Shown one piece after another: positions 5,262 through 54,200 of a stretch of 64,000 bases of DNA; positions within the stretch are counted from its first letter, which is position 1; every line of letters begins with the position of its first letter. A program made the translations under genes and the position numbers. The notes below the pieces were generated by a model. That model saw nothing but the letters and a program-made list of their open reading frames with translations. It ran no database searches and had not been told where the DNA came from. Where the stretch lies: NCBI GenBank assembly GCA_000934665.2, contig KZ538396.1:1-64000 (forward strand), read 5' to 3'. The DNA comes from Catajapyx aquilonaris. Lineage: Eukaryota.

Positions 5262-5262
5262 A

Positions 5263-5265
<3 letters not shown>

Positions 5266-11780: not shown

Positions 11781-12576
11781 CCTTTGATGTTTTATTAATT
11801 TATTAGCCAGTATACTGTAATGGGTAGTGCAGTAGTCTCAGAGTGCAATGATGTCACAGTGTAGATGGGTGCAAGGAAGGCATTTTCCAGCCACGCATGC
11901 TCGTTGCAAACTGGTAGCTAGTGCTGCATTGGTGTAACATCAGATCTTACAATGGAATTTCAAGGAAACATTGGAATTGGAAGTTTTAGTGTATTTATTT
12001 GCAAGGTTGTACTTTATACAGGGTGGACGGAAAGTTTTGGACCCCCCCAGGTTTTTAAACCCTCCTTTTCACAGCGTTTTTTCACATCTTTTAAAAGTCC
12101 ACAAGCAGTTCTAATGTGCACTACCTTTTGAAGCATAATCTTGAGAACATCTGAGCACCTTCGCTCTCGCAATGCCATTAATAACTTCGCCTCTGTGACT
12201 CATCTAAGCATCCTGTCCGTTTTGCGTTTATTTTGCTTGTTGCCTTGGAGGACCCCTGGTCATATTCTGCGTCAGATAAGGTTTTTATGACCCTTTTACA
12301 TGAGTTCCCCTTCATGCAAATGTTGCGAACTCACTCCTGACCTTATTTTTCGCATTGGTCCATAACCTGGTCCAATAAAAATTTGAAAAGGAATGCATGA
12401 AATGGCGGACCCGGATGCATTACTTTCGAATTGGTACCATCACATTTGTCTCCATTTTTACTTGAAGCTAATTTTTTAGTGGGAAAGGACAGTAAACAGT
12501 CCTACCTTGGTGAATTAATCAACATGACACATCCTTTCGTTCACGTCCTTTCGCACCAAAAAATTATTTCAAAGTA

Positions 12577-13426: not shown

Positions 13427-14149
13427 TAAAAATGGAGACAATTGTGATTGTACCAATGTGAGAATTCGAAAGTAATGCATCCGGGTCCGCCATTTAATGC
13501 ATCCCTTTTCAAATTTTTATCGGACCAGGTTATGGACCAATGCGAAAAATAAGGTCAGGAGTGAGTTCACAACATTTGCATGAAGGGGAACTCATGGAAA
13601 AGGGTCATAAAAACCTTATCTGACGCAGAATATGACCAGGGGTCCTCCAAGGCAACAAGCAAAATAAACGCAAAATGGATAGGATGTTTAGATGAGTCAC
13701 AGAGGCGAAGTTATTAATGGAATTGCGAGAGCGAAGGTGCTCAGATGTTCTCAAGATTATGCTTCAAAAGATAGTGCACATTAGAACTGCTTGTGGACTT
13801 TTAAAAGATGTGAAAAGACGCTGTGAAAAGTAGGGTTAAAAAACCTGGGGGGTCCGAAACTTTCCGTCCACCCTGTATGTATCTCTTAGCGAATCTGCTG
13901 AGAAAAACACAATTTCAAGGCAGAAATCAGAGGTGATGCGATCACGCGTTTTTCATTCACTAAGTAGGCCATGAATGGTAAATATGCAGTGATCAGTCAA
14001 CCCCAAAGGGATGTGAAATGATGCCAGATGTCTCATTTCCACTCAATATTGCCGCATTCCCGTTTTATTTAGGTTAATTCTCCGGCGTCCACCTTTGGGA
14101 CCACGCCCACTACTGGTACACCTACCTTATGTCTAAAGTGTCAGTCATT

Positions 14150-22200: not shown

Positions 22201-25200
22201 CAAACGGAAATTCAACCGCAGATGGGAATGTCTGTGTGGACCCATATGGGACCCGGTGCGAATGGCATGAGCCATTGTTAGACTGAGATCAGGAAAGTGC
22301 CTTTCGGTACATGTGGCCTACTCTCGACCGTGGGAAATGAAAAAAAAAAGAAAAAAAAGGAAAAGAAAAAAAAAAGTGCTTGCCAACCTGAACTTCGACT
22401 TAGGGAGACTGAAAATGCATTGATATCCTTCCCTAAGGCCCTTCCAGAACTTCGAGTTATGGAGAACTTCGAGTTATGGAGAACTTCGAGTTATAGAAAT
22501 TCGAGTTAGGGAAGTTTATTTCCTATTCTTTTACATTGTGACCAACCAAACTCGTCATTTTATTCGACTTATAGAGAAGTTCGACTTAGAGAAGTTTTAC
22601 TGTATTTATAAACAGGTGGCGTATTCCCGTTTTGAGCCTCATGAAATAGGTGGCTGTGTTTCTTGGGAGTGTAAAAAATTTCCTGATAAAAAAAGATTGA
22701 ACCTTTTCAACCTCCAGCAGATAAGCTAGTGACCAGATCGGAGCTGCGTATAATGCATATAGAAAGTAAGTCCTGGCACTCCCTGATAGCCTCCTCAATT
22801 CCTAGACCAGCAATGTTCCATGAGCTGCATTTATACTTCTGGATAGACGGCCTTGCACTAGTATTGGAAGGGACAGAAACGTGAATGGCTTGCGCCATCC
22901 GCATGGGGAAACAGGGGCACTGAATGCATCGGGCTTGGTATGTAATTTGGGGGCTGAAACTGCACCGACACTCGGGGACAGGGCCGTAGCAAAACTGACT
23001 CGTGGGTTAATTCTAGTTGGATCAGGTGGAGAAATCGGAATAACACATGCACTTGCACTCCACGTTGAAGATTCTGATACACTAGGTGTAACACTGGCGT
23101 TGGAGGGTGAACCGAACTGGACCATCACTTGTTGGATGATCACACCGCTGTTGCATAGGTACAGGGTGTCCCACTACCTCCCGAACCGGGAAAATGGCGC
23201 ACAACTGGTAAACCACTTGATGTAGGGCGATGAAATTTTACGGGTACATACCTTGGTCTGTGAAAGTAACATATTGTCATAGAAGATGCTGAAAGTGGCC
23301 CCCGTTTGCCTCCAAGCAGGTCTGAACACGACGCTCCATGTTCGCAGAAATGCAGGCCAGCATCTCGGGAGTTATCCCCTCAATTGCGGAACGGATATTT
23401 TCCTGCAGTGCTGGGATAGTTCTTGGTTTGTTTTTGTAGACCTGTCCTTTTAGGTAACCCCACAGGAAATAATCCGGTGGAGTTAAATCGGGTGATCGTG
23501 GTGGCCAAATCCTCTTGGAAATGACTCGGCCTGGGAAGAAGGAATTGATGCCGGCCATGCTGACCCTCGATGTGTGGCATGTTGCTCCGTCCTGCTGAAA
23601 GTAGCCAAATCATGGATACACGATTTGACCGGAGGCTTCCGGCCACGAAACTTCTTCACGAATTCCACTTGACACTGCTTGAATGACTGGGTTCTCCAGT
23701 ACGTGCGCACCAGAAACACACGCTCTTCCAGAGTGTAGTGGTACATGCTTGCGCCTTATTCCGCTCAGCACACACCTGCAGCCAGTTTTTCTCATGGATC
23801 AAGCTATGTCCCCGTAAAATTTCATCGCCCTACATGAAGTGGTTTACCAGTTATGCGCCATTTTGTCGGTTCGGGAAGTAGTGGGACACCCTGTAGAAGC
23901 TGCTCCTGATGCTCCTTTGCTGTTTTTCTTTGTTGACCTTCGGTCCAAGGGCGATGTTGAACTGCCCCTTTTATTTCGAGTGGTAGTATGGAGCTTGTTC
24001 TGCAGTGGTTCAACGTGGCCCTCACCAGATTCATTGTTCTGAAGTTCCTCTACAACGTAATAAATCTTCCATCCACCCTTAGTTTGTCTCGTCAAATAGA
24101 CGCTTTCTTGCCCATCTCCTTGAACTGCCGCATATATGGTAGCAATTTTTTTCGTATATCTCGGGTCTCGAGTGAGAAATCCTCCGATATAGAAAGGACC
24201 TGTTCAAGTAGCCCCGCTACCTAAATGGCAACCATCTTGCGCATCTTGTAGTGTATAATCTATGCACCTAGTTTTACGCTAAAGGCCGCTGTGTTCGCCA
24301 CTGACTATCTTTGATGTGGTAGGGGTTGCTACCTAGTGGCCTTGGTAGGAATCAAAACATGTTGTCACGTGGTGAACTGTTTTATTAGTTGATTTAGAGG
24401 CAGGAAAACTTGTGTGGTTTTTACCCCGTAAAAATGTTGTAAGAATATTCGTGCGAGACAAATGCCGCCTCAGGGAACCGATATGCGAAATGCAAGCCCC
24501 ATCGAGATATCACGCGTTTGCACAATCGCATATCTCTCCCTCTCTCCCTCTCCTCTCTCTCACTCTCCCCTAAAAGAGAGACAGGAGCGAGGGGCGGACT
24601 CAGCATGGCGTTCGTTGGCAAAGCAAGGGCGTACTCTTTCTCCAAACTGATGAAGGTCACCCTTTAGAAGCATTCTTCCATTGAATGACATACATTAGAG
24701 TGGCTGGGCAGCAACATTTTGATCCAACTCCCCTGCTTTGCCAAGTTTCAGTGATCTGCACTAATCTAATGACACGAATCATTGAGCCATGTGGGTGGCC
24801 TTTCTTTGCCAGGATAACTTTGAACAGGTCCTTTGCGAGGACTTCAATTTGTATGCGTTCCTCAAAATCGCTTCTTTATCTTTGTAGAAGTAGCATTTCA
24901 GGATGATTGGTCTCGCTCGGTCCGGGATGATTCTTCCCATTCGATGGCTGCGCTCAATAGGTAAATTGGGATTGGGGAGTACCCCAAGGTCAGTCAGGGT
25001 CTTCACTACTTTGAACTCTGCATCCCCCCACATTTCTTGACCATCAGGAGCCACCCCAAATATAACGCTATTTCTTCTTCTACCTCGGTCTGCCATATCC
25101 ACGATCTTGGATTCCAACGCCAAAATCTTGGTGATCGAGAACTCCAGTTGGTTGGCAAGGTCCGTCATTATGGACCGTAGCTCGTTCACTTTTTCACTTT

Positions 25201-28200
25201 GTTCTTCTGCCTTCTTGTCTAAGATCTTGGTGAGCTCTGACGTCACCTTCACTGCCACCAGCTCAATTGCCCCCTGGATTTTGGAGTCCAACTTCTTCTC
25301 GAAAGCTTGTAGTAAGTCGGCCATCTCTTCCTTTGAAATCCCCATTTGGACGGATTTGGCTGCCTATATGTGGCCTTGTGGATGAGCGCCCCTCACACGT
25401 CCTACTGCTTTGCTAGCCAGGAGGCAACTCCCGTACAGTACAAATTGAAAGTGGGAGGCACCCTTGAAAGCGTCCTGAATAACTCTACAAACCAAAAAAG
25501 AACCGGTCATTCTAGGTTCAACAGAGGTGCAGATATTACCTATTTTGTTTTTTAAAAAAATCTCAAAAACCTACATTTTCAATTTTTTGAAGTTAATTTA
25601 GGGACTTCTAAACGAGTAAAATTGTTCCATACACATTCATAGTGTTTTCCCTGATCGTATAGCTGTTATTATTCGTAAAAATTGTGTCTTGTGTGTATCT
25701 TCATAGTACATGTAACCCACGGTCTGTGTGGTTCGGGCCAATCTGGTAGCGAAGGTCCTACTTTCATAATGTTGGTTAAACCCTATGTTTATGTTACTTT
25801 GTGTGTGTGCAGTTCCCATTAGGTACCTCGGTCTCTGAGGCGACAAAGCCATTCCAGCTGCTGGTTACTATTGATCCTGATTCTTCAGACAATGGCTTAA
25901 AATTTTGTCTGTAACCGTTGTATTGTGAAGGGAATTTCAAAGGATAAAGGAAGGCTTACAATATTACTCACTTTACAAAAATTGGCTTGTTTAATCTGTG
26001 CTTAGCTTATTTAGATTGTGCCAGAATTAACTCTCTCTCTTATGTTTTTAAAGATCCATGAAATTGTCAAGCAAAATCCCATGGGGTTGAGCCTCCATGG
26101 GGCTGAACAATATAGGATTTACACTCTTACCCTGGAATAACTCAGCATCTATTTCTTAGCCCTTATGCCACCATTCTGTCCCAACTTCATTTGATTTTCT
26201 CTTGCTTGTAGTAGAGAACTTGTAGATGACATGTATGCAACCAAATCTAGATACATGTACAGCCAGCTCCTGACTTGTCTAACAAGGGAAGTGTCTGTAG
26301 GGGTATCGGCCAATCGGCCCGAAAATAACACTTAGGGTAAATCGCAGGCCATAAATTCATTGGTGAAAATAAAAAGTGCCAATAGCCAAGCGTTTTCGAG
26401 ATATGAGCGACGTTAGGTGCACGGCAAACCTGCGAGGTGACAAGGGGCGCATTCGGGGTAAGAAATGATAAACAGTCTTTGTGGCTCAGTCTGTAGAGCG
26501 TCCGTGTCATGTTCCAAAGTCTCCCCATTCAAGTCCGAGGGAAGCAACTCTCTCTCCTCTCTCTCTCTCTCTCTCCCNNNNNCCCCCCCCCCCCCTCGTC
26601 TTGGAGCATCATTTTCTTTTTCTTTTTTTCCCAACACCGTTTATCACCTCATATCTTCCCCTTTGCAATCAACAGGAATAAAACAGCTTGCTGGGAAATG
26701 CATTACTTTTTTTTTCTCCTGCCGATTCTTACCTACTCTCTCCATGGCTTCATATTCGGAAAAATGAATAGTCACAAGCTCAGTAAATAATAAATTATTC
26801 GTGTCCCTTCGTAATTATTTTTTTACGTATACTTTTCATTTATACTTCATTTATGGTTGCGGTTTCATTGAACACTTATTGTGAGTTGACACCTATCATC
26901 ACTCATATCTCGCAAACACTTGGCTATTGGCACTTTTTATTTTCACCAATGAATTATTTCTGGCCTGCTATTTACCAGAAGTGTCATTTTCGGGCCAATT
27001 GGCCAATACCTGTACAGACACTGCCCTTGTAAGTGGGTAGTTCCATGACAGTTCACCCCAAAAAAAATCCAAATGGCACCCTACATATTCCAATTTTTAC
27101 GAAATTTGGCACATGTGTTAAGACCGACATCAGTAGTACGTCTGAATATTTTCAAGTAGCAGAGGTCAATAGGTCAGGAGGTCAAAAATGAAACAAAAAA
27201 TGCACATTTTACAACATCGTGCCTTATATCTTCGGAACTATACATGCTAGGAGTATGGCCAATATGTCATTTGATTCACAACATTATGGAGAATCTACCA
27301 CATACCTTGATAGAATTTAGTAGCGTAAACTACCCGCAAAAAGTGGGAGGTCAGTGACATGACCTTTGACCCTTTGAGTATGATGTAAGGTAGAAACCTG
27401 AAAAAATATCCACGTGTACCTCTGCTGAATGCCTTTCATTTAAAAAAAATTAAGATGAGCAATATGTTTTGTTTTAGAGAAAAAAAATTCGAAGCGTAAC
27501 CCCACCCGACCCACAACCATCTCCCCGCAACCGTCGACGCGACGGTTGCGGGCCGGGTCGGGTGGGGTTACACTTCGGATTTTTTTTCTCTAAAACAAAA
27601 CATATTGCTCATCTTAAATTTTTTTAAATGAAAGGCATTCAGCAGAGGTACACGTGGATATTTTTTCAGGTTTCTACCTTACGTCATACTCAAAGGGTCA
27701 AAGGTCATGTCACTGACCTCCCACTTTTTGCGGGTAGTTTACGCTACTAAATTCTATCAAGGTATGTGGTAGATTCTCCATAATGTTGTGAATCAAATGA
27801 CATATTGGCCATACTCCTAGCATGTATAGTTCCGAAGATATAAGGCAAGATGTTGTAAAATGTGCATTTTTTGTTTCATTTTTGACACCTGACCTATTGA
27901 CCTCCGCTACTTGAAAATATTCAGACGTACTACTGATGTCGGTCTTAACACATGTGCCAAATTTCGTAAAAATTGGAATATGTAGGGTGCCATTGCTTGG
28001 GTGAACTGTCAGGGAATTACCCAAGTGTATCGTTCTACAACATTATAGCCTAAAAGTTGAGCTTCACGTACCTGTAACTCAGAATTATTTTTTAAATTAC
28101 ACAGGATATTGTACTGTACCTTATGTGTCTATGCTTAAATCACTGTTTTATTCAATTGAACCTGTCTCAAGCGGGAAGAGTTTCCTAGGGAGATCCAGAA

Positions 28201-29244
28201 GCAAGGGACAAATGTGCCTCGAACATGTTAAGTGAGTGATGGAATGAGTAAACGGTGCTTAGGCGGGAAGGTCCGAATTGCCACATGCTGAAACTTTACA
28301 CGTTTTGTCTTTATTGGCGGCATTTTACTTTACCAGTTTGTTCCCTAGATTCTTTGCAAATCTGATTTTTTTTTACATCATTCCAAATCATCATGTGTTT
28401 GAGCTACATTAAGTTGGGGGCTGTCTGAATATTCCACTTTTAAGCAACAAAGTAGGGAAGTCATGTGCTACTTTCGTCATTTTTTAAGATCCAGGCATGG
28501 CATGTTGGTGGTATACCCCATTGAAACAAATAGGAAGCATGACTCGAACATAAGCCTATACAGGGTGGCCCAACTTCAAGTGTAGTTTTATAACGGCTAT
28601 TAATAGAAGCGCTTTACAATTATCGTAGCAGCCACGTGTAAAATGGCCCGCTTCGGCGCCATCGAAAATATTAGCTGTGTTTTGTTTGCAGGCTTCCCCC
28701 TTGCATTACAGGTCCATGGTCCATCTGGTGCCTTGGACGTCACCCATTTCACCCAGACGCATCGCAGATCATGTGTGCACCTCCTTTTTTCCAGGTCAAC
28801 CCAGCAGCAGGGTTGATTACATGTGTGCTGCTATTGGCAGCTAATATTTTCGATGGCGCCAAAGTGGGACATTTTACACGTCGCTGCTACGTCATCGCAA
28901 AATCACTGCTATTAATCGCCGTTATAAAACGACACTTGAAGTTGCACCACCCTGCATTGTTCAGTGCTTCCAGCTAACATTGGGTTTTTGTCTTTCAGTT
29001 TGGTGTTGCAGTGGTGATAACAAATCAGGTAGTTGCACAAGTGGATGGAGCGGCCCTGTTTGCTGCTGATCCGAAAAAGCCAATTGGGGGTCACATAATG
29101 GCCCATGCATCCACAACTCGTCTGTACCTCCGGAAGGGGCGAGGGGAAACACGTATTTGCAAGATTTATGACTCACCTTGCTTGCCAGAATCAGAGGCAA
29201 CATTTGCAATTACCAAGGACGGAATAAGTGATGCAAAAGATTGA
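14604..29244 (+). CDS. RAD51: DNA repair recombinase RAD51, 5 coding exons (14604-14831, 14899-15108, 16262-16470, 16529-16658, 28999-29244), 340 aa
   Basis: All introns GT-AG and phase-compatible; FTTA oligomerisation motif, Walker A GEFRTGKT, Walker B LMVIDS, loop 1 [20 protein letters not shown], loop 2 [12 protein letters not shown]-terminal IYDSPCLPE. Confidence 0.97.
14899..15108 (+). CDS. RAD51: RAD51 coding exon 2
   Basis: [14 protein letters not shown]...[19 protein letters not shown]. Confidence 0.96.
16262..16470 (+). CDS. RAD51: RAD51 coding exon 3
   Basis: [26 protein letters not shown]...; donor GTAAAT. Confidence 0.96.
16529..16658 (+). CDS. RAD51: RAD51 coding exon 4 (not in the ORF track)
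   Basis: Manual translation [43 protein letters not shown]; donor GTAGGT. Confidence 0.95.
18650..19250 (-). repeat. Expanded degenerate (TAA/TAAA)n tract, probable LINE 3' tail
   Basis: 600 bp of T/A only; on the minus strand it follows AAGGGGTAAT directly downstream of the LINE ORF2 remnant. Confidence 0.85.
20131..22602 (-). mobile_element. Full-length pogo/Tigger DNA transposon (2472 bp)
   Basis: TA|CAGTAAAACTTCT..AAGTCGAA TIRs; subterminal TTCGAGTTA repeats; transposase inside. Confidence 0.95.
20330..21892 (-). pseudogene. Tigger/TIGD-like transposase (HTH_psq, CENP-B HTH, DDE_1; DD32D) with one in-frame stop at 20636-20638
   Basis: FNADETG / FVDNCPAH / QPMDQGII; ORFs 20636-21892 and 20330-20590 are in the same frame. 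Confidence 0.9.
23162..23893 (-). mobile_element. Internally deleted Tc1/mariner-superfamily element (rosa/maT-like)
   Basis: TA|CAGGGTGTCCCACTAC ~80-bp TIRs; N-terminal [16 protein letters not shown]..; C-terminal [28 protein letters not shown]. Confidence 0.9.
24196..24831. mobile_element. Non-autonomous element inserted between AAA and TTT with no TSD (Spy/PHIS-like)
   Basis: AAA|GGACCTGTTCAA...TTGAACAGGTCC|TTT; excision restores the LINE ORF1 frame LKSSQISISEDFS. Confidence 0.8.
26283..27029. mobile_element. Non-autonomous TIR element, ~130-bp imperfect TIRs, TAA flanks
   Basis: TAA|CAAGGGAAGTGTCTGTA...TACAGACACTGCCCTTG|TAA. Confidence 0.7.
27035..28022. mobile_element. ~990-bp foldback element, 4-bp TSD, GGG..CCC termini (Sola2-like)
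   Basis: AAGT|GGGTAGTTCC...GGAATTACCC|AAGT; arms pair to the centre ccgcaaccgtcg-acg-cgacggttgcgg. Confidence 0.85.
28561..28954. mobile_element. CAGGGTG-terminated MITE with ~120-bp arms
   Basis: CAGGGTGGCCCAACTTCAAGTG...CACTTGAAGTTGCACCACCCTG. Confidence 0.75.
28999..29244 (+). CDS. RAD51: RAD51 coding exon 5 (terminal)
   Basis: [17 protein letters not shown]...[38 protein letters not shown]...DAKD*. Confidence 0.96.
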
Positions 29245-34445: not shown

Positions 34446-36205
34446 ATTGCCATTAACACTTGAAATTTGCTGTACTACGCATGATGTGTGGAATTGTTTG
34501 TGATGGCAACCTGCATGTTTTCCATCTATTCGGTTGATCACAGACATGTTAATGGCGAAATTTTGGGCGTAATAATTATGAGTAATGGCGACGCACAGTG
34601 TGACATTTCAGCAATCCAGCGGGATTTAAATGGAAAAGTGACCCCTCTCTAATATACGAAAACACAACTTATTATTTAGGAAGAGTCATGTCTCGTTGTT
34701 AATAAAATGTGGGTTAAGTTCATTTTAAGAGTCCCACATCACCTAAAAAAATGGACCTATCCATACCCCCACCGGACCACATTACGAGATACTTCCACGC
34801 AAGCGATTATCATTCATTTACTTTGCTGGACAAGTGTGCTGCATGCCCACATTGCATCTTGGTTAGAATTTTGTTTTCTGCAACTTCAGACCTGGCAAGG
34901 TAAGTTTACTGGCATTTATATTACTCTCTAAACACAGCATTGTATAATATATTATAGCAAATTTTCAAAACATATTGCCTCAGGAATCAGTGTTGCGCCA
35001 CGAGGCATTATTTGACACTTTTACTATATTTTACCGTGTTTTACCCACCTCATACCACATGTAGCCTACACAAAAGTAGGGCATATGGGCTATTCAAAAA
35101 TGTAATAAAATTTTGCCGAAGTTTGCGCAACTGCCTAAAAGTTACTCGTTTTCAGAATGTGCCCCCGCATTCACACGTTTTTTTTTGACATAATATTTGT
35201 GTGTAGCATTAATGACAGAAGCAAGAGTTATAATCATATTTTACCGTATCAGTTTTGTAATTATGTGAAATAATGGCTAATAAAATTGCACAATTATGTA
35301 GGCTAATTATTTTAAATGTGATTACTATAAATGCCTATAAAGGCATTACAAACCGTTTCTCATGTGCAGTATTATTCATAAAAATAACCCATTTAAAAGT
35401 ATTCCCGCACATAGTTTTTCACACAGGAATAAAATCCCGCTGGATTGCCGAAATGTCACACTGTGCGACGTGGGTAGAGGATGTTTTTTTGGACTTTCTC
35501 ATGGGCCTGGCCTTTTCAACGGGATATGTAACTATGCTGTATTTGCAGTTGAAACCACAGGCGCAACTGGAAAGGCTGCCACTGGAAATGAGTTTCCGTC
35601 ATATATTTACAAGAATGTGATCTCAATTCTGAACGATTCTGAATCACGAGGTCAATTGCCAAGTCTGACCGCTTGAATGCGCCACCCAACAGCAAATATT
35701 TGGAAGCACTCTTTCACGCCAAATCGTTATATATTGTATTCGACCACCTGTATCTCAATAAATAAACCAACCATTGCCTTTAGTTTCATGATAATTCTCC
35801 CACAAAATGCAACATCTCAGGTTATACCCAAATTCTGCATAAATTCAATGCATGGCAGTATCGTAGCAAGGCGCAAAAACAGGTGGTGCCGTGCGCATAG
35901 AATTCCATACTACTGCGTTGTAACCTATGTGCGCACGCAAGGCCGCAAACGTAGGGAACATCACTACGCCCATGACTACGCCACACGATGGAATCTGACA
36001 ATGCGCAAAGTGCTGTATTAGTAAGAAATATTCCCCTTTCGGTTCGTTCCTGCTGTCTGTTGCTAACACTCGTCGGAACTCGGAACCTGCTTACACATTG
36101 TTGAAACCGTAAATCTCGGATGTGGGAAGCGGTGCCTTCGTGAGTCGACAGGTTTCATCCAGCGTTCTAAGTTCTAGCAAGCCGTCCATCGAAACCAGCC
36201 GGAAG

Positions 36206-36264
36206 ATGAGTGCGCCGGCGAAAACGAAGACAGGGAAGTCGAAATCGCCTACGAGTAACCAGAG
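36206..36264 (+). CDS. DPP3: DPP3 predicted first coding exon
   Basis: AAGATGAG start in a CpG-rich stretch, [19 protein letters not shown], donor AG|GTATGA; phase 2 matches the downstream exons. Confidence 0.6.
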
Positions 36265-39200
36265 GTATGATGTTAATATGATGGATGGTTGATGAAGCTG
36301 ACTTGTGCGTTATTGGCACAACCATTTTGTGGCCTGCCATTAGATATGGCCTTGAGGTCAGATGGCAATATCATTTAACTTAAGCACATTATGTACTGGA
36401 GGTAGAACTTGTCCAGTTGCTTTAGAGATGAGGAGTTTGGCTTTCTGACAACCGAAGAGACCATGATTCACCCAATACGCTTTATAATTTTTATGGGCTT
36501 TTGTCCACCAGATTCGCCTGATTGTCCAACCTCTTGATTAGAGCATATCCACCCAGAATTTTGTTCATAACCTCATGGAATAGGCAAGGCTGCACCCCGG
36601 GTCACCCAATGGAGGTGCCCAATTATCTGCTATTTTTACACGCTTTATCACATGTGGGAATAATTGTGCACCCCTGTTGGGATGCAAAAAGCTGCACAAA
36701 AATAACAACTTCAGGCAAAATTTGCCGTAACTTTTTTTAAAAGGGTGTGAATACTTGGAACACACTGTACAGACACATCCTGCTCTAAATTGGCATACCT
36801 TGCCTTACACTCCCATACCAGTATGGCCACTAGAAAGGCATTTCCTAGAATCTGTTCCCCCATATTTTTTCTAATATGGTACTATGGGCGCCAAAAAAAT
36901 TGACCGGAGTTGATGGGTATATGGCACTATATACCCATCAAATCCGGTCAATTCTTTTGGCGCCCATAGTACAATATACTTTGTAATATTATTAGCTCAA
37001 CAATCTCACTAAAAAATATTATCATGATATGGGGTGACACCAATCCTGCAACATACACTTTCCATACTATACTAAAGGACGTGGCACAAAAAGTATGGGC
37101 CAGTGGCCTTCTGTTCAATTTGCCTGAAAATTGGATGTGTTGTAGCCTAGACCATCCTGATCAATGTTGGATAGGGATATATCGAGGTAGGACATAGGGA
37201 ACGTGCTAATGACCTCCGGAGGTAATATGGGGAGTAGTAGACTACAATAATCTTGATTCCAGGAACTCACTGGTTGTTGCATGAAATTAAAATTAATCCT
37301 TATTACCAAGTCATCGGGTTCACATTCTACTCCTTGAAGGTTGTCATCTGGAGTTTCCTCCAGCTGCACTTCAGCATCCATTGGGTCAATGTAAGGAGGC
37401 TTTCTCTCACAGCAGTCTTCCATTGTGTTGAGTAGCCTCCTCGATGGATAGCCGATATTTTCCTGGTGTCTAGCAAAACCTAGATACCACAAGTCACTTG
37501 CCAAGTGAGCACAACAGCCAAGCGTTCAAGACTTCCTGTCTTACACTTGCAGTACCATCCAAGAATTGGTTCAAATCCATCGTCACCGTTCTGTTGATCA
37601 TACAGAGCATCTTTGTACGCAATCCACAGGTTGTATTTGGGGGAGTTGGAAAACCTGGACTAAATTCTGGCTCTCAGGAAACCTGGCTCTTGTAGTAAAT
37701 CTCAATGGACCATTCTGAATCTTTATCAAGTTTATCCTGAACATAGGACTTTGCAAGTTTGACTTGGCACACTCCGTAAATTATGTTAGGTTCCTTAAAT
37801 CAAACTTGCGAAGTCCTATGTTCAGGATAAACTTGATAAAGATTCAGAATGGTCCATTGAGATTTTACTGCATGAGCCAGGTTTCCTGAGAGCCAGAATT
37901 TAGTCCAGGTTTTCCAACTCCACCAAATACAATCTGTGGATTGTGTACAAAGATGCTCCGTATGATCAACAGAACAGCGACGATGAAGACAATGGATTTG
38001 AGCCAATTCTTGGATGGTACTGCAAGTGTAAGACAGGAGCTCGAATGCTGGCTGTTGTCCTCACTTGGCAAGTAACTTGTGGTATCTAGGTTTTGCTAGA
38101 CACCAGGAAAATATCGGCTATCCATCGAGAAGGCTACTCAATACCATGGAAGAGTGTGGTGAGAGACACCTTCCTTATATTGACCCAATGGCTGAAGTGC
38201 AGCTGGAGGAAACTCCTGATGACAACTTTCAAGGAGTAGAATGTGAACCAGATGACAACTTTCAAGGAGTAGAATGTGAACCAGATGACTAGGTAATAAA
38301 GATTAATGTTAATTTCATGCAATAACCAGTGAGTTCCTAGAGACAAGATTATTGTAGTCTACTACTCCCCCTATTACCTGCGGAGGTCATTAGCATGCTC
38401 CCTGTATGTCCTACCTCGAAATGTCCCTATCCAACATTGATCAGGACGGTCTGGGCTGCAATATATCCAATTTTCAGGCAAATCGAACGGAAAACCAGAC
38501 CATGTCCCATATTACCTTCGGAGGTCATTAGTACGCTCCCTGTGGGTCCTACCTCGAAATGTCCCTATCTTCAGGATGGTCTAGGCTACAACATATCCAA
38601 TTTTCAGGCAAATCGAACGGAAGGCCACTGGCCCATACTTTTTGTGCCATGTCCTTTCACCAGAAGTAGAGAAATGAAATGACCTTGTAACTGGCAACCA
38701 TGCACCAAGTGTACAATACACTCCCAATTATCTTTGCTAATTAATGCACAAGTGCATCTGACAGATGATTGTAAAATACGGATAATAATTCAAAAATGGC
38801 CCTAGATATTGTAAAAAGGATCTATTCAGAGGTTTTAAATGAAATACTGGAAATATTGTATTGTGTTCTGGTTTAAATAAGGTTTAATCAAAATAATAAA
38901 ACCTACTAGATTTTTAGTTTCTCTTCTGGAAAAAGTCTGTTAGGCGATTTGTTTGTGAGACATGTTGACATTCTTTTAGACTTTTCTTCCTAACTTCCTT
39001 TTTGAGAAGGGCAGAGGTCAAGTCATAAAATTCCGACCTCACCGATGTTCTTGAAATTCGGTACATTGGTAGCCCACCCCAAGGGATGAAAAACGCACCT
39101 AAAGTGACCTGCTCACAATGACCTAGGGACCCCTTTTGGAGGACAGAGGTCAACTCGTAATTGGGGAAAACTCACAGATTTTCTTGAAATTCGGTGCATT

Positions 39201-42200
39201 GGTAGCCCATAAAAAGGGGTCACCGGGTCATTTTGAGCAGGTCACTTTAAGTGCGTTTTTCATCCCTTGGGGTGGGCTACCAATAGAATTTCAAAAGTTC
39301 TTGGAAAGTGTCCCTTGTGAGTTCAAGAGGTCATAACTTTTGACCTTGCAGGCATTAGCCGAAACGGTTTGCATTTTCTTTTATATCTTACCTCCCTATA
39401 TTATTGTGCCAAGTTTCATTGAGCAACTCCATTTACAACACTTACAGTTCCCTTGTGAGATATTCCTATTTTAAACTTCGACAGCCCATAAGGTTCCATT
39501 GTAAATTCCACTTTCTTGGCCTTCCATTGTGACCTATGATCATTACTCCACAACCACGACCAAACCATCATATTCTACAGTCTACACTATTTTTTATTTT
39601 ATTTATTTAATTTTATTTTTCGTACCCCGTTGTTAGGGCCGTGGACCCTTTTGGGGGGACACACACACATAGAATACAGGCAATACACAAAAGAGGAAAA
39701 AAAAGGGGGAATACATCATGAGTAGTTAAGCATATGCCTATGGACATTGGTTAAATATTGATGGAGCTGGAATATTTGCAGTTTCGATAAATTTTAAAGA
39801 AAAGAGGAGAGATGATCAGGTGGGAAGCGAGGGAAAGTATGTAGGTATGTATTACGGGGTGTGTTAAATATTAGGCATTCAAAAATCAAATTATATAAAT
39901 CTAATGAGCGGTTCATATTGCACCAGTCACAGTTGTCATCACTAAGTTTTATACCCGCGCCTGCTTTTACCGGGATGTAGGTTGACATATTTCTCAAATT
40001 TGTATACATTCTAAGGATAGGCAAAGGTAAGTCGACAGAAAAATATGGTTCTTGAACATATGTTGTTTTGTATGGTTTGTAATAAATGTATCTCTTCGTA
40101 TTGGACAACCGATCCAGAAAAAGGTTTTGTTACAGTCTACACTACACTGCAAATCACAAAACATTAAAAGAGCATCACTGGTGAGTCTCTCATGGAACAT
40201 AAATTTTTAATCCTCTTCTAATGCTCTGCCACTGCTCTTCTAATGCTCTTGTGATGCTCCTGTGATGCTTTTTTAGGTAAAAAGTATCACAAGAGCAGTG
40301 GCAGAGCATTAGAAGTGGATTAAAAATTTATGTACCATGAGAGACTCACCAGTGATGGTCTTTTAATGTTTTGCGGTTTACAGTGTAGTGAAATTATCTT
40401 CTGAGATATGTAACTCATTTTGGACAAAAAGTGGACCTTGATCGTTCTTCCCCCGAGGTCTTCATATACAGGGTGAAGGGAAACTCACAGACAATCGCCA
40501 GGTAGACTGATAGTACTCATAAAACTAATTTAGGGATGTGCTATTCGTTTTGGGCTCAGTTGCATAGTTCATGCGTTCAGTGTCAAAGTTTCGTGATGTC
40601 ACATCTGTTCCGCCAGCTATAAAGAAGCAAGTCAGCTCGAGGGCCTCCAGTCCCTTGCCTTGGTCACATCGTCCATGGGGAAAAGGCGATCAAATCCCGT
40701 CAGAGTAAGAATCAGGGTACGACACCTGTGCACTTTGTTGTTTTTACCTCGCATTGTACCATCCGGCCCTCTACACTTAAAGAGGCGCCGTACACATTAA
40801 CTACGCAACGGAGCCAAAAACTAATTGCACATCCCTATACTATTTAATTAGTTAAAAATTAATTAGTTAAAAAAAACTTCCGTGGTGAAATTTCTCATAA
40901 AATTTATTGCAAGGAAAAATAACCCCGGGGACCGCGCGACCCCTTGGAAAGGGGTTAACTTGGCAGTCCGCCCTCCCAACACTCCCAGCCAATGGCGTGC
41001 CTGGATTGGGATTGGGGGGGGGGGGGGGGGNNNNNNNNNNNNNNNNNNNNNNNNNNNNNNNNNNNNNNNNNNNNNNNNNNNNNNNNNNNNNNNNNNNNNN
41101 NNNNNNNNNNNNNNNNNNNNNNNNNNNNNNNNNNNNNNNNNNNNNNNNNNNNNNNNNNNNNNNNNNNNNNNNNNNNNNNNNNNNNNNNNNNNNNNNNNNN
41201 NNNNNNNNNNNNNNNNNNNNNNNNNNNNNNNNNNNNNNNNNNNNNNNNNNNNNNNNNNNNNNNNNNNNNNNNNNNNNNNNNNNNNNNNNNNNNNNNNNCC
41301 CCCCCCCCCATGGGGCAGCACTTGTTGACTGAAAGAAAATGCATTTCTGCACAACTTCTGTGGAATGAAAGGAAAATTGGGTGCAAAATTTGTACTCTAG
41401 TTGAGGTCAAAATACCAAGAAACATTTTGTAAAGGTCAAAGTTTTGAAATTCAGTCCCTTCCACACACCTCCCCCCACCATCCCCAGTTTTAAACTTCAA
41501 ATGCAGAATTTATCGAAAATAACTTTTAAGATTATTCATTACTGAAGGTGGACTACTACAACAAAGTTTTTAGAGAATTTGACTGTGAGCGTTAGGCTTG
41601 GTAAATGTCCATTGCAAGTACTGGAATATGACTGTTTGGTCTATTTGCATTAAGTTACTTCATGGTGGACCCATTTCTGCTTTACTGGGGCCCAACGTTT
41701 GGGACTAGACTGATGCTGCTTTTGTACCCCCATGTAGTACTCCCATTCCTTTTGTCTCTTCCTCACTCCTTTTTCTCCCCCTCAGGAACCAGCAAGACTT
41801 CAACATGCATGACATTTCTGCTGATACGAATGTAAGGTGATATACGAAGTGTCTGTCATGTGGACATTTTTAAAGATATTTTTGAGGGTGGTCCAGCAGG
41901 GGGTGACAAAGGAAGAAGCCACCATGCATCCCAACATTGTAGCAATTTCTGGAGCCATTCATGCACGCCACAACGGATGGCCTGAGCGGTTGGCTTTGTC
42001 AGTAGTTCCTGCAACCGAGTGAAATTGTGCAAACACCCCCATTTTTTTTTGTTTCTTTGTCATGAAAAGGGACCAGTCCGAGGAAGTTATGGGTCTGTTG
42101 ACCCCGGCTGACCTGGGGAGGGCACTGGAGACCTAAAAAAATGACCTAAGGGTGGAGATCGGACAGGACATAGTGAAATGTACTTCCGACCTCACAGCTA

Positions 42201-45200
42201 AATGTCTCAACGCTCAAGGCGAACTTTTTGCGGAGCGAACGGTGATCAACGAGCTGAAGGTAGAAAATCCTTATCTCAAGGAGGTTGAGTACCTCTAACA
42301 GCGCATGGTTCAGTTAGAGAACTAATCACGCCGATGCAACCTTGTTTTCTACGGCCTAAAGGGTGTGCAGGGAGAGTCATGGGAGGACACTGAGAACAAA
42401 GTCCGATCGACAAACTCCACCCTAATTCTGGAAGTATCGAGTTTCAATGGGTACACTGGCTGGGTCACAGGGTCATTTTGAGCAGTTCACTATAGGTGCG
42501 TTTTTGATCCCTTGGGGTGGGCTACCAATGCACCGAATTTCAAGAAAATGGGTGAGGTCAGAATTTGACCTCTGCTCCCTTCAAAAGTGGGTCATGGGGT
42601 CATTTTGAGCAGGTCACTATAGGTGCGTTTTTCATCCCTTTGGGTGGGTTACCAATGCACCGAATTTCAAGAAAATCGGTGAGGTTGGAATTTTACGAGT
42701 TGGAAAATGTCCCAAGTTGTCAGGGCAAATCTCAAGACATCATAAATGATGTCCGTAGGCCCTGCAGGAAAGTATGCTCGGACATCATATGATGTCCGTA
42801 GTCGTCCAAGGGTTAAGGAATGCAAATCAAGCTTCATAGAAATTTTATTTACTATTTTTGACAATAGCCTAAATACTCAGGAAATACCGTCGAAATGGGG
42901 GCAAGTGAGAGTAACCCCAATATACAAAAGCGGCGATAGAGCGCTTCCTGAAAATTATCGTCCAATCGCAATTTTTCATGATACTTTTAAGTTATTTACA
43001 TCAATTTTGACAATCAGATTACAAAGTTGGGCAGAAGAATATACGATTCTCCCAGATTGGCAGGCTGCTTTCCGTAAATCACGTGGATGCATGGATCATT
43101 TGTTTACTTTTCATATCTCATCATTAGCCCTATACTAAAGAGAGATACCATTCTTTCCTCTCTTCTTTTTCCTCTTTGTTTCTCTCTCCATCTGTCCCAC
43201 CTCTGCATCTTCTTATAGCCAGATAGCCATAGTTGCTTTGGCTTCTTCTTAATAAACCTAAACCTAAACAAGTGATTGTAATAAGGTGTATAATTCAAAG
43301 GGGAGTGGCAAACTTTTGGTATGCCTCTGGTTCAATCTGTTGATGATAATCTCCATCGTATGTATCAGAAAGAGGCTTATGCATGCTCTTTATGGAAAAG
43401 CACTTATATCATTTTTGCTCCACAGGATTGCAAACCTGCCAGATCAAAATGAAGCTGAAGATGAACTGAGCCGTTACGACATATCATCTGTCCCAAAGCA
43501 GTTTCTTTTTCCAATGGACCAACCAGTGGTACAGATGGAATGCCAGACTGCTTTTGACAATTTAAAATATGATGAGAAAGAATACGCACACCATCTCGTT
43601 TGTGCAGCCTGGACAGGAAGTCTTATTGTGACCTTGCAGGTAGGATCAAAAATGCCCATGACTCATGTAATTTACCTAATTGATTCTGGTACATTGTTGG
43701 ACATAATCTCGTCGTACTGCTAGCGACATTTTCCCAAGCGGCAGAAGAACGAATCTTGCTCAAACGGCTTGCACTATCCATTGCTTCAATTAATTCTTCT
43801 GCCAGCAGCAGTAGGCAAGGGGATTTGGTATCCGGCTGCGAATCGGGAGGTCCAGGGATCGAATCCCCAGGCCGGCAACTCTGACCGTGGTTTTCTGTGG
43901 TTTCCCACGGTCACCCCAGGTGAATACCGGAGTTGTTTCCTAAATTAGTAGGCCACAGCCGCTTCCTGCCTTTCCTATCCCTGTCCCATACTGGAGGAGG
44001 TGCGGCGTTTGCGGGAGGTCTCTGCTCCGCATCTAGAGGGTCGTCTTGTCAACCTAGCCCTCTGAGGGACTGCACACGTCCTCCACCATGAGACATTGCA
44101 CTTGCACCACTGTCCCCCCCTCTATCCCAGCACTGGAGAGTCAGAAAATGGTGGAAAAAAAAATCTCCCCTACATTGGCCAGAAGGTCTCAAGGGTGTAA
44201 ATAAAAATAAATAAATAAATAAATAAATTCTTCTGCCACTTTGGAAAATGTCGCTAGCAGTAAGACGCGATTAATGTCCAACACTGTACCATGGTCTGCC
44301 TAAGTAGACAAGGATAGACATATGGATTAGCTAACAGTGCTGGGAAATGGGAGAGAGCGAAATCAGTTATAACTAAATGGAATGTAACAGATTTGATGCC
44401 AATTTTTATCATGATCAAAACTCATCACTTAGCATGCTGGACTATATTCGTTTTATTTATGTCCATGTCTTATTATCCCATGCTGTAATGACATGGCATG
44501 GTGAGCACAGTATAACTCCTGAGCTAAACACGTTACCCCCTATTTGTTCCTTGGTTTTGTGTCTGCATAAGCAACATGGTCATTCACTAGTCTATTTGAA
44601 AATGTCAGAATGGACTTGGGCACATGTACTTTCCAGCAGACGGAGGGCAGGGTCAGTGTGTATGGGCCTTTAAGGGGGCACTACAGTCATCGACCTTCAA
44701 AACTTCGTTTTTTTGTTGTTTTTTTTTGATAAAAAAATCAAGCGTCTTTTCCTTCGTCGAATGCAGCTAACCGCGTCCCGAAATTCAAAAAATTGGAGCG
44801 TCGGGAGCGGACACCTGGCAACGACCTTCGGTTCCCCCTCCTCTCCCTACCTACCACTGGCATGAGCGCCATCAGGTGCTGCTCCCGCGCGGATGCGGAG
44901 GCACTACGCCGGTCCTGCTGGCCACAGCTTGTCTGTGTGACAGTAACGTATTTTTTTGAATCGCATTATCGCTCTGTTACATTACCCTACTTTTAACTTT
45001 AAACGCGTTTTTCTCAGTTTGCCAGATTTGGACACTGTCGACATCAGCCAGGCCACAAAAATGTAGCTGCGGACTTCCCACTTCACCAGATTTATCCTCA
45101 AACATGGCGCTATCATTCAGCCCTAAAGAATTAGGCTGCTCGAACTACTTCTATTTTTACTTTAATTAAATGTTTTCTCAAAACTGCTTAATTTGGTACT

Positions 45201-48200
45201 TATCGTCAAAAAAATACTAAAACGATTTCAAAAATGATAATTCTGGGTCAAATGAAAACTACATGCTCAAGTAAGCCTGAGGTCCAATCTGACTGTTGTA
45301 GGGTGACCCCAGCGTCCTAAATTGTGTCGACAGTGGCGTGACGTCACACGGCCCTGGAGGCCCTTGGACACACGAACGTGATTCGATTATAGGCGCTAAT
45401 AGGTCTTTGACTTATGTACTATATACGCCAAATTGTTTCATACCCCCGGGGTATGAAACAATTTGTCGTATACCTAGGTATAGTGCTATACGACAAATTG
45501 TTTCATACCCCGGGGGTATGAAACAATTTGGCGTATATAGTACATTCATGAAAATGAGGTCCCAACTTCTTGTCTCTAATGGGTTTTTTTTTTGGCGATT
45601 TTTTACAAAACCCTTGATTTTGACTGTAGTGCCCCCTTAATGTCTAATTGTGTCCTGTCAAGGTGTGTCATGGATGCATTTTGTAACCTCTTTTCAGACG
45701 TCACCAGAGTCTCCATTCATCTTTGCTATGCTTCGTCGTCTGTTCACCATCCAGCCTCCACATGTACTAAAGCCTGCTCTCTTGGAGAAGGGGTTCGACG
45801 AGGATGAGATCCAGGCATTCATGGTCTACACTTCAGCAATCTTCACCAATATGGGGAATTACAAGGGGTTTGGGGACACCAAGTTTGTGCCCAACCTCTC
45901 TCCAACCCGGTTTGAGTCTATCATCATGGCTACTGATGCATGGGAATATGAGGACCAGTTGGTCTTGGAATGCTGGTCCTTGATCAGAGTACGAATGTAT
46001 ACCATTCATGACCATGTGCAACAGCTAGGCTTGGGTGAAAAGGGAATAACCACCTACTTCTCTTCTAACTGCACCCCAGAGGATGCAGCCAGGGTGTCAT
46101 CATACCTAAAGGATCGAAAAATGGAGGCATACAACCAGCGTGTGTTCAAGGTAGAGGAAGAAAACAGGATTACTTACTTCATCAAGCTGGCTTCTGTCAC
46201 TATAGGCTCAGAGACAGAGGTGACTGTGATGTCTGAAAGGCATTCAAGGACTTCAATAATATCTGAAAGGATTTCAAGGACTTCACTAATGTCCAGAAAG
46301 GCTTCAATAATGTCCGGAAAGCCTTCATCGATTTCAATACACTCTGTATTGCCTTCAATGAATTCAATGACTTCAATGACGTCTGAAATGCCTTCAATGA
46401 CATCAGTAACGTCTGATGTACCTTCAATGACTTCAATAATGTCTGGAAAGCCTTCAACAATGTCAATAGTGTCTGGCAAACCTTCAGCAATTTCATTAAT
46501 GTCAGGAAAGCATTCAATGATGTCAATGATGTCAACAATGTCTTCAATGCCTCCAATGCCTGCAATGCCTGCAATGCCTGCAATGCCTGACATGCCTGAC
46601 ATGCCTGACATGCATGAAAAGCATGAAAAACCGGAGGAGCCTGAAACCCCTGTAACAACTGAAACCACTGAAACAGGTGAAATTCTTGAACCTCCCGAAG
46701 ATGAAGAAGAAACGATAGTAATATACGAGGTGTACAGGGGTGACTACTCACCTATCTTGGATAGGGTCAATATGGCCCTGGATAACGCAATAGAGTCAAC
46801 ATCTAGTGCTCTGCAGAAGAAAATGTTGGGTGAATACATGCGGAGCTTTGAAACTGGTGTACTTCAGGTGAATATTTATACAGTGTGATTTAACTAAATT
46901 GACAATAGCAGTTAATTTTTCTTTTTTTCTTTTTTTAGCTCGAGACTATTTATTTTAAGCTGCTTTATTCAACAGTTACTATTAAGCCCTGTTTCCAGTG
47001 GCACTATTTTTATTCTGGACAAAATGCAAGCCAGGAAACGCTACAGTTTCACCTGCAGAATTTTTCAAAGTTGCTGTGACATACCCGTCCTATTAGGGTT
47101 AAAATTAAAGCCAAAATTCCTGCATTCCAGATCTCTTATTGCAGGAATGAGTAGTAAATGTAATGCATATTTACTATTGTCTGATAGTGATAACTTATCA
47201 CATTTTCATTCCAGTCCTATGGATGGTGACCTGTTGATATTTTTAAATGGATACACATTCATAAGCTTACACTGTATTTTGACAATTCCTCCTAACCTCA
47301 CCATTTTTTCCTGTGTTCCAGCATCACAAGGAGGGTTCACGCCTGTGGATCCAGGACAAAGCTCCAGCCGTTGAAACATACATGGGCTTTATTGAAACCT
47401 ATCGAGATCCAGATGGACAGAGGGGGGAGTTCGAAGGGTTTGTGGCTGTTGTCAACAGGCCCATGTCAAAGAAATTTGCACATCTTGTGGAGAGAGCTAG
47501 TGACTACATTTCAAGGCTTCCGTGGCCCAAAGAGTTTGAGAAGGATGAATTTCTCCAGCCAGACTTTACTTCACTTGATGTCATTGCCTTTGCTGGGTCA
47601 GGAATTCCAGCGGGTATAAACATCCCAAATTGTGAGTCCGGTGGAATGAAAGCTTGATGTAGTTGCATGCACTATAGGCATTGAATTTGGCTGTACTGAA
47701 AGTAATTAACCCAATTTTCATACTGGAGTTAATTTTGCGACAGTAATGTACTGCTCTCCAATAACCTCTGCATTGCTTTATTCCCATTTTTATGACTCAT
47801 CCATCCTGATAGATGCATTTTTATTACCTGCACAGGAATTTTAAAATCCATATGCAATGGAACACCATTCCAGATGTTTGTAAACATTAATGTGCAGCAT
47901 TCTGGACTGTATCATTAGTAGAGGTCACTTAGGTATGTGTGTACCGTGGCAGGCATAAAGATGTGGACAGTAGTACTTCCCTTGCTAGTAGAAGCGCAGC
48001 CAGTGTCATCATTATACAATCGACATACAGTATTCTTGGCATGTCCTACTAGTATGCCTACCTTGGTGCTGTTGGTAAGGGGTGAAGGTCAGGCTAGGAA
48101 GCCCCCAGGCAGAGGAAGACCTCAGGTATACCGTCCACGTTTTTATGTTTGCGACTGTACATACTATTTGCCCAATTTACAGGAGCATGAATCATGACTT

Positions 48201-51200: not shown

Positions 51201-54200
51201 AATTTATACCACTACGCAAAGTGATCCTCTGAATCTCTGATTGCCATCGAGATCTGCGAGCTAGGGGGGTTCCTCTCTCAGAGCAAGCTGAATATAGGAT
51301 TGGTCAGACACTATGCCCTGTGCAACAGATGAACTTGCAATTCTCACAGCCCTGTACTCGCACATTTTTCACCATAACATTATTTTAGTACAGTATCAAA
51401 TGCATTCCAAAAAAATTTGACAAGCATCAAAATTATGGAAATGTACCTTGGTTATTACGACGTGCCGGCCACCCGTGGGTTATACCGGCATACCGCTTTA
51501 AGTGAGGTAACAGGGTAATTATTCAATTTACAGGGTGTTTTTTACTAGTGTGGCCAATGACCGGCAGCACATTCCTTGAGAGCCTAAACAAGACAAAAAT
51601 GTAGGGGGGAGAAATGTGGAGGGACCAACCATTAACGAGGTAGATGACCAGAAACATTGACCAGTGGTTCCCTGGGGGGACTTTGAGGTAACTTAATTTT
51701 TTTGTGGCGAAACACGATGTTAATCGAGAAAAACATGACCTAGGCGCCCTGTGCAAAGGTTTGGCCTTTACAATGATACCATACTCGACATGAGTGCATT
51801 TAAATTGTGGGCATACAGCCATAGAAATGTGTCCGATTTTCACGCGATTTCTGCCGCCATGTTATATATAAAATGGACTTTTCGAAGGCGTCGTTTTCCA
51901 CTCACTTCAACTCGTCCTAACTCACTTTTAGGCCGCAAATGGGAAAAAGACAAACTAGGGCACCTGCTCGAGATTGTCTATTTTTTGATGCAATTTCTGT
52001 GTCAATTGAACCATTTTTGCGGTCGTACGGGCGAAATGTAGACATGTCGAATCCCCCTATGCTGCCTATGCATAAGCAAGTTTGTTTTGGTCATTCATCC
52101 CCAAGGGCTCCGCATTGTTACCGTATTTTCGCTAATGCGCCACCTTAAGAGGGCCGGGTCATTAGTTTCCCGCCACTTTCTGGGCGGCAGCAAGCGAAAA
52201 TCAGATGCGCTGACTCGTCTTCATTTGAAGAATCCTGGCGCGCTGTTAGAGATACGGACACTCGGTTTCTTGCATCGTCCGGAGAAAGAGCTGGCGCTTG
52301 TTCTGGTCGCGGAACTGTTCTAGTCGGCCAATCAATATTCAATCGGCGAAGGGAAATGCGTTTGGAAATTGACGTCACAGGGGCGTCCCAACGGAGTCGG
52401 CCATTTGAATTTGGCGTCTTAGAATGTGTAGCCCCCCGTTGATCTCCGTGCCGACTGATTTTGGAGTCATTTGGGCAGTTTTCATGGCACATATGGTGTA
52501 AACGCTAGACCCCCCGCCACTAACCCCGAAACTAGGTCTGCCGATCGGAGGGAGAAAGGCAACAGCGCCGCCCCCGGCAAAGGTTGCCAATTCAGATACA
52601 AGCTGCCTGTATGACCTGTCATTGTTATATACAATAATGGGAAATCAATGAGCGACAGGCTCTATTATTCTATTATATATGTTGTTTATTGATTTCCCAT
52701 TATTGTATATAACAATGACAGGTCATACGGGCAGCTTGTATCTGAATTGGCAACCCTTGCCGGCGGGGGCGTTGTTGCCTTTCTCCCGCCGATCGGCAGA
52801 CCTGGTTTCTGGGTTAGTGGCGGGGGGTCTAGTGTTTCCACCATATGTACCATGAAAACTACCCAAATGACTGCAAAATCGGTCGTCACGGAGATCAACG
52901 GGGGGGCTACACATTCTAAGACGCCAAATTCAAATGGCCGACTCCGTTGCGACGCCCCTGTGACGTCAATTCCCAAATGCATTTCCCATCGCCGATCGAT
53001 TATTTGTAGGCAGATTAGAACAGTTCCGCGACCGGAACAAGCGCCAGCTCTTTCTCCGGACGATGCAAAAAACCGTGTGTCCGTATCTCTAACAGCACGC
53101 CAGGATTCTTCGAACGAAGACGAGTCAGCGCACCCGATTTTGGCTCGCTGCCGCCCAGAAAGTGGCGGGAAACTTAATGGCCCGGCCCTCTTAATGTAAC
53201 TGGTATTTTTGGTTGTGCAAGTGTTCTGATGCAGATTCATGCCTGGAAGTGCAACCAAAGCATAGATGGTCGGTAGCACTGTCTAGATCTCAAGAACATA
53301 AAAAGCAAGTTCCAGATAGAATATACATCCCCATTTTATCAAATACAAAGAATTCTACTTACATCCTTGTTTATGAAATACAGCATGAACTGTTGCATTG
53401 GAGTCTTGCCTCAGGGGAATTTTGAAGTCCTGTGCAGGTGGCAGAAAAATAACTTACATTGACTGGGGTGGAGATTTTGTTGACAATTGAAGTAAGGAAC
53501 ACAGAATGATGTGATTGATGTTGCAATGGGGAAGTAGCCTTCATTTTGGAAACTACATAATAAATTCGCCCATATTTTTTGGATTTTTTTGGCATATTCC
53601 GTTTTAAGATATCAGTTTCAGTTCCGGAGATATTGGCGTTTTTTCATAGGCAAATGGTGACGTCACTGTTTGCCTCGAAAATGTTGACGTCACGCAAAGT
53701 GAAATGAACGCAAAAATGGTGTTATAGAATGCGCCCCGTCATTGTCGTAAAATGCTTCGCTGTTGTTAGCAACCGTCCCATTCCGTGAGCAAGATAGCGG
53801 CCGGGGCGCATAATTATTCCAGGCCGCTCAAACCGCTTCTGGGCTGACAGTGGTGCCAACTGGTAGGAATTATCTGTCTCCCGAATTAGGCACATAAAGG
53901 CCCCCCTTCTCCACCTCGATGGCCTGCAGTCGCCTTGCGAATGCTTTCCGTCGTGTCCACGGTTAATTCAAAGTCAAATTCCTGATATCTCGCAGTCAAC
54001 CAGTCATTTCAGTGTACCCTTTCGATTGGCACCACCCGGCTTCCCCGTTTTTCCCGCCAATTTTGAAGGCACTTTTAAATGTGCCGTAATTTATCCAGTA
54101 ATGTCATTTTGATGCAACAGAGTGATGGAATGTATGTTTACAGGCATGGGCTAGCTAGTTATGAACAAAAATCCCAAATCCCAGACCAAGGCTACTTCCC

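Follow-up and report, generated by a model that had tools for sequence, protein, structure and literature searches.

A mobile palindromic Spy element with transposase 3'-end sequence in both arms, in an intron of a DPP3-like gene of Catajapyx aquilonaris

Introduction

The first intron of a DPP3-like gene of Catajapyx aquilonaris contains a hairpin of 1578 bp whose two arms both encode the end of a transposase. The hairpin lies within the stretch of DNA analysed here, 64,000 nt of contig KZ538396.1, referred to below as the window. A first-pass annotation had read it as a Harbinger/ISL2EU-like derivative that arose at this locus by duplication of one transposon end, and had proposed that transcription of DPP3 would turn it into a source of anti-transposase double-stranded RNA, as with the Mu killer silencer of maize. 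The locus raises three questions: to which group of transposons the hairpin belongs, how one end of a transposase gene came to be present twice, and whether the resulting RNA is likely to silence anything.

Results

The element (37077..38654, no strand assigned) ends in GGACGTGG and GGACATGG and is flanked by a host AAA (37074..37076) and a host TTT (38655..38657), the left and right halves of an AAA|TTT target; the AAA|GGAC and GTCC|TTT ends described earlier are present. The left arm (37077..37765, minus strand) consists of a decayed transposase 3' end at approximately 37765-37307, in which the stop codon is mutated, followed by ~230 bp of 3' non-coding and terminal sequence. The right, folded-back arm (37797..38654, plus strand) contains transposase codons at 37800-38292, with a TAG at 38290-38292, followed again by 3' non-coding and terminal sequence. 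Each arm thus corresponds to the last ~160 codons of the transposase plus its 3' end, and translation confirmed that both encode the same decayed peptide, reading outward from the centre. Between them is a single-copy loop (37766..37796, minus strand) that is itself coding (…LRNLTYG…), is continuous with the left arm and is common to five copies. The unpaired centre measures 31 nt, or 37 nt if an imperfect closing stem is counted, compared with the ~40 bp first estimated; relative to the centre shared by the five copies, the window copy carries a 5-nt insertion in its loop.

Global alignment of the two window arms gave 650 matches and 47 mismatches (93.3% identity) plus indels, a divergence of 6.5-6.7% with indels. 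Two tandem duplications are found in the right arm only, one of 33 bp (38215..38280, plus strand) and one of ~125 bp in the subterminal region (38368..38622, plus strand; units 38368-38492 and 38506-38622), the latter being present in further family members too. These results bear out the earlier statement that the arms have diverged. The mismatches are mostly C/T and A/G transitions, and as genomic differences they are uninformative on RNA editing. The central 1 kb was predicted to fold into a single hairpin at -789 kcal/mol, a raw value without a shuffle control. The duplex would comprise ~460 bp of coding and ~230 bp of 3' non-coding or terminal sequence, and its stem includes nine perfect runs of at least 21 nt, which cover 317 of the 639 matched bases.

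The position of the element within DPP3 was derived from one contig of run X5 that joins 36079-36262 directly to 43424-43639, consistent with a GT donor at 36265 and an AG acceptor at 43424-43425. Since a GT-AG interval is skipped in this contig, we took it to represent RNA; the element is missing from it. Exon 1 of the DPP3-like gene (36079..36264, plus strand; ATG at 36206) has a 5' limit that is merely the end of contig 25 of run X5. Intron 1 (36265..43425, plus strand; GT…AG) is 7161 bp long, and the element begins ~810 bp past the donor. Exon 2 (43426..43640, plus strand) is defined by the spliced contig and by a match to solved DPP3 chains (E 1e-4). The spliced reading frame from the ATG at 36206 is open, and six Peptidase_M49 matches follow downstream on the plus strand. 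Together, the spliced contig, the open frame and the exon 2 and M49 matches place the element in DPP3 intron 1, in agreement with the first-pass annotation.

Several other features of this gene were observed. The segments 36206-36264 and 43426-43490 encode an N-terminal extension, ~40 residues long, that precedes the part of this DPP3 matching solved chains. Further downstream, an exon consisting of a single 415-codon open frame (45641-46885, plus strand) has a Ser/Met/Pro-rich repetitive insertion of ~150 residues inside the M49 domain (repeats at 46243-46560), which splits the Pfam match. Intron 1 also contains an open frame at 42746-43135 (plus strand), which in its motifs resembles a LINE reverse-transcriptase fragment, and an assembly gap (N run) at approximately 41013-41310, where adjacent G and C runs give rise to spurious perfect inverted repeats.

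Long inverted repeats are common in the window. Of 79 stop-free frames in its other hairpins, 44 were scanned against Pfam, and the single match was a DUF4817 HTH remnant (23486-23755, minus strand; E 1e-7) inside an element at 23160-23895. That element and those at 4923-5265, 12016-13878, 28558-28957 and 61471-62060 are inverted-repeat elements with TA-CAGGGTG ends, presumably Tc1/mariner-like. A 923-bp palindrome at 27072-27994 (arms 96% identical; no Pfam match in the six frames tested) has AAT|GG…CC|ATT ends that fit an ISL2EU A|AT|T target. Another palindrome, of 1.05 kb (52142-53197; 91%), has TTAA-GAGGG-like ends, gave no Pfam match and is located between DPP3 exons, where it provides a natural control hairpin.

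A Pfam search with the arm peptides alone returned no family. The paralogous copy at C4253, however, has kept an open frame of 161 codons, and comparison of this frame with longer proteins gave matches to 17 of 75 candidates, the best with 67% identity (E 7e-50). PF13359 (DDE_Tnp_4) was found in 14 of these 17 homologues, and alignment placed the matching region at their C-terminus, beyond the DDE domain. The peptide is thus the C-terminus of a DDE_Tnp_4 transposase, as the annotation had proposed. By eye, the same C-terminal block is present in the Spy_MRo, Spy_SIn, Spy-CGi and Spy_AEc proteins of the Spy supplement (PMC4122938). The block does contain the CxC..CxH arrangement on which a SWIM-type C-terminus had been proposed, but Pfam SWIM scores in the relatives were 12-15.5 bits and below the cut-off of 19.6, so that 'SWIM-like' is the fair term. 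The proposed link between such a C-terminus and the lack of a target site duplication (TSD) holds, although published Spy sequences already reveal it (PMC4122938 supplement).

Spy transposons are defined by insertion into AAA|TTT targets without a TSD and by GGANNNNG termini (PMC4122938), and cgSpy is an active member of the group (PMC11304231). Both termini of the window element, as well as most family ends, fit the GGANNNNG consensus, and a silkworm Spy end closely resembles the end of the window element. The element shares with the published Spy group the target, the lack of a TSD, the termini and the C-terminal block of the transposase (PMC4122938). The DDE part is absent from the window element itself; in the distant relative C6655 the catalytic residues are spaced D81D47E (counted by hand), next to the D(79-80)D(44-62)E pattern of the single Spy ORF.

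To establish where the element ends and host DNA begins, we scored 20 elements that have both ends, comprising 19 of 25 distinct loci and one sister-family copy; we excluded five duplicate loci and a further six in which an end is missing, displaced or degenerate. Flank positions 1 to 3 were T at 40, 38 and 40 of the 40 ends, with mixed bases further out, and one end of an excluded locus (L026) reads AAT instead of TTT. None of the 20 elements had a TSD of 2-10 bp in either register, in line with the no-TSD signature named in the annotation. When the flanks are joined, those of four of the 20 elements can be aligned through the junction with paralogous repeats; AAATTT is intact in two of these cases, and the other two have a degenerate hexamer of equal length. 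In one further paralogue, a gap of 14 bp covers the insertion site. The triplets are thus host DNA, which identifies the elements as Spy rather than ISL2EU or Harbinger. Insertion occurs bluntly between host AAA and TTT, the empty-site evidence coming from paralogues of copies other than that in the window.

The terminal motif of the element gave 238 matches genome-wide compared to one in a reversed control. With 20,583 contigs, the assembly is fragmented; the searches score best candidates only and yield lower bounds, and 138 of the 238 end matches fall outside those listed. The same centre junction was found at C709 (the window copy), C4253, C933, C5290 and C5845, whose flanks are unrelated. 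At least five palindromes with one centre at unrelated sites indicate that the foldback itself transposed. This replaces the view that the foldback formed at the window locus, and we conclude that the element is almost certainly a Spy (PHIS) element that was mobile as a palindrome.

Shorter members of ~140, ~320, ~470 and 500-650 bp are made of sequence that is present in the 3' arm. Among 17 short members, the terminal arm is joined directly to 3' coding sequence in 12 and otherwise in one, with no call for the remaining four. No 5'-specific sequence was seen in any member examined, in agreement with the reading of both arms as 3'-end sequence. C3305 differs from the other copies in having ~175 bp of extra upstream coding sequence, the only place where such sequence from the parent was found, together with its own near-perfect fold centre and a second arm that is cut after 135 bp. 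A reading of C3305 as this palindrome in truncated form was rejected on account of the upstream coding sequence and the separate fold point.

Searches with the DNA of the arm, the C-terminal peptide, the DDE core, two closer homologues and the upstream 150 bp did not find a full-length parent in this fragmented assembly, in which the searches set lower bounds. None of 20 further end-anchored regions had a transposase match or contained such a parent, and a 3.5-kb element at C133 likewise had no transposase match. Since the parent was not found, the description '3' end only' applies to the members and has no counterpart in a comparison with the parent's real 5' TIR.

Related sequences are present elsewhere in the assembly. 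A second Spy family with GGACATGGGTTAAC termini (C164:74325-76515, C5939, C3136 and C4188 of G000; L062, L061, L063 and L059) includes three coding foldbacks, at C164, C5939 and C3136, which differ in arm length, and one copy with non-coding arms of ~470 bp. At C6655, C9113, C4056, C5279 and C2250 of G000 there are Spy-type transposase frames 317-607 codons long, some of them still open where the contig ends; a motif scan did not find their termini.

Comparison of the five palindromes revealed that the arms within a copy are homogenised. Over 540 alignment columns, 1, 7, 8, 5 and 9 variants were private to both arms of a single copy, whereas arm pairs drawn from different elements (n=50) had 0.1 on average and never more than 1. 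Given a single shared origin, these shared private variants require repeated copying from arm to arm. The window copy, with one shared private variant, is the least homogenised; at the other extreme, the arms of C5845 are identical (0/506 differences), which may reflect collapse by the assembler. In C933 the ~125-bp duplication lies on the loop-continuous arm and in the window copy on the folded one, a difference that exchange between arms would be expected to produce.

Discussion

It is highly likely that the window element represents one insertion of a non-autonomous Spy (PHIS) family built from two parental 3' ends. As to how the second 3' end was acquired, we consider duplication of one end a reasonably probable origin. 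A broken or aberrantly transposed Spy copy may have been repaired by copying or fusing its own 3' end, and a comparable route, fusion of re-replicated broken ends, has been proposed for inverted repeats of maize Ac (bioRxiv 10.1101/2020.01.07.897926). The 31-nt centre could stem from priming at the inverted match of the centre junction, a weak one in which some 8 of 11 bases agree by eye, or from loss of the middle of a longer foldback resembling C3305. Palindromes can be unstable in this way. With two good ends, the product would have been moved in trans by the transposase of the family, and further central deletions would have generated the MITE-like members of 140-650 bp. Conversion and crossing-over between the arms may account for their likeness within each copy and for the inversion of the centre with respect to the ends. 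The parent may have decayed later or be absent from the assembly. Double-stranded RNA made from DPP3 pre-mRNA would, on this account, be a passive by-product.

The alternative that fares best is an internal deletion of an autonomous Spy whose TIRs already measured 700 bp or more and included the end of the ORF, as in a Galileo-like extension; we regard it as possible, though doubtful. Published Spy TIRs span 9 to 1474 bp (PMC4122938), and by our own arithmetic on Table S3 of that paper, under the assumption of intron-free genes, ORF and TIR must have in common at least 746 bp in Spy_RPr, at least 638 bp in Spy_MOc (693-aa ORF) and at least 154 bp in Spy_MRo. Galileo is likewise described as taking more than 500 bp of its ORF into its TIRs (PMC4168063), and the junction would look identical under either route. 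A fixed long parental TIR, however, would predict neither the absence of 5' sequence from the members examined nor fold points that vary, and these do vary, with that of C3305 ~175 bp further in and the arm lengths of the sister family unequal. Even with such a parent, the 3' coding end would still have to have been copied to the opposite end at some stage. We therefore retain one-end duplication as the preferred origin.

By analogy with Mu killer, transcription of DPP3 might yield a hairpin RNA that, once diced, acts in trans against the Spy parent, silencing it now or having done so in the past. The setting fits such a role, in that transposon sequence duplicated in inverted orientation lies in the spliced intron of a conserved gene and is predicted to form a single long stem rich in perfect runs. 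One maize Ac killer is itself located in a host gene's first intron and transcribed from the host (10.1101/2020.01.07.897926), and the missing parent would be compatible with past silencing. The element is nonetheless quite unlikely to be a silencer of this kind. At twelve loci that carry Spy ORFs or remnants of the sister family, exact matches to the hairpin do not exceed 10-14 nt, an intact cognate element was not found in the (possibly incomplete) assembly, and upstream parent coding sequence was confined to C3305. The window copy belongs to a set of at least five mobile copies rather than being a locus-specific rearrangement, its arms have drifted with no sign of maintenance, and long hairpins are frequent in the window, including another of ~1 kb in a DPP3 intron. 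The maize killers, moreover, duplicate the 5' end (10.1101/2020.01.07.897926). As in the window, one of a DNA transposon's ends, together with a portion of its gene, is inverted and duplicated inside or beside a host transcription unit in Mu killer as well as in the killers of Ac, but these are single loci shown to give dsRNA and siRNAs and to silence an active element in trans (10.1101/2020.01.07.897926), whereas the window element duplicates the 3' end, belongs to a dispersed mobile family, is known from DNA sequence and has no known active target.

It is very improbable that the element is of the ISL2EU, PIF/Harbinger or Kolobok type with a short TSD, the AAA and TTT forming part of its TIRs. 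DDE_Tnp_4 is common across PHIS, and some Spy families are filed as ISL2EU in Repbase. ISL2EU, however, inserts into A|AT|T targets with a 2-bp AT TSD, and PIF/Harbinger has a 3-bp TWA TSD (PMC4482050). Neither was seen at the ends of the 20 elements scored, and the paralogous empty sites keep both triplets. The termini and the C-terminus fit those of Spy. ISL2EU is recognised by a THAP-DDE transposase together with a second, YqaJ ORF; the partial relative C6655 gave no THAP match, and the parent that would carry such ORFs was not found in the assembly. Elements of the Kolobok type have TTAA TSDs with AGG ends; this reading was rejected since the fourth flank base is mixed.

That the palindrome is an artefact of read mirroring or assembly is scarcely credible: none of the listed public contig pieces bridges the element, whose reality is therefore judged from other evidence, and one relative (C5845) has arms that are 100% identical, but the window arms differ at 47 sites as well as by indels and arm-specific duplications, and the identical centre recurs at four other loci, each with its own divergence and flanks.

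Coding sequence in long TIRs is known already. It has been described for Galileo, a member of the P superfamily in Drosophila willistoni, in which each TIR has taken up the final part of the ORF, with more than 500 bp of it in one copy, and changes pass from one TIR to the other, as between the arms described here; Galileo differs in superfamily and in having a 7-8-bp TSD (PMC4168063). It is also implied by the Spy tables, since in Spy_RPr (3192 bp, 1474-bp TIRs, partial ORF) coding sequence must be in the arms too (PMC4122938). Compared with Spy_RPr and other Spy elements, the spacer in the window is 31 nt only and the arms hold solely the post-DDE part, and a nested series of fold points and homogenisation of the arms are visible in Catajapyx aquilonaris. 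Recruitment of ORF sequence into TIRs has been called unique to Galileo (PMC4168063); the window element and the published Spy tables show that it is not. Our literature search, which covered sources other than Repbase Reports and most subscription papers, found no published palindromic Spy family made of 3' ends only. Palindromic MITEs and foldback elements in general are gene-less near-perfect palindromes with two good ends that are moved in trans; the window element is larger than most and still recognisably coding.

As an annotation, a dead Spy derivative within an intron is nothing unusual. What modest value the element has lies in mechanism, as the expansion of Spy TIRs is left unexplained in the Spy paper (PMC4122938). 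The fold-point series, the homogenised arms and the flipping of the centre point to one-end duplication with central deletion as a route to long TIRs and to palindromic MITEs. A more speculative and rather unlikely extension is that Spy families repeatedly spawn mobile foldbacks of two 3' coding ends, with arms kept paired by conversion, whose intronic copies act as 'mobile killer' hairpins against the parental mRNA. If true, such elements would spread on a transposase and then shut it down, which would explain the long and variable TIRs of Spy and the loss of the parent in two foldback-bearing families, while foldback-free Spy families keep long frames (C6655, C9113). If small RNAs came from such copies, they would constitute an animal counterpart of the maize killer loci that is itself mobile.
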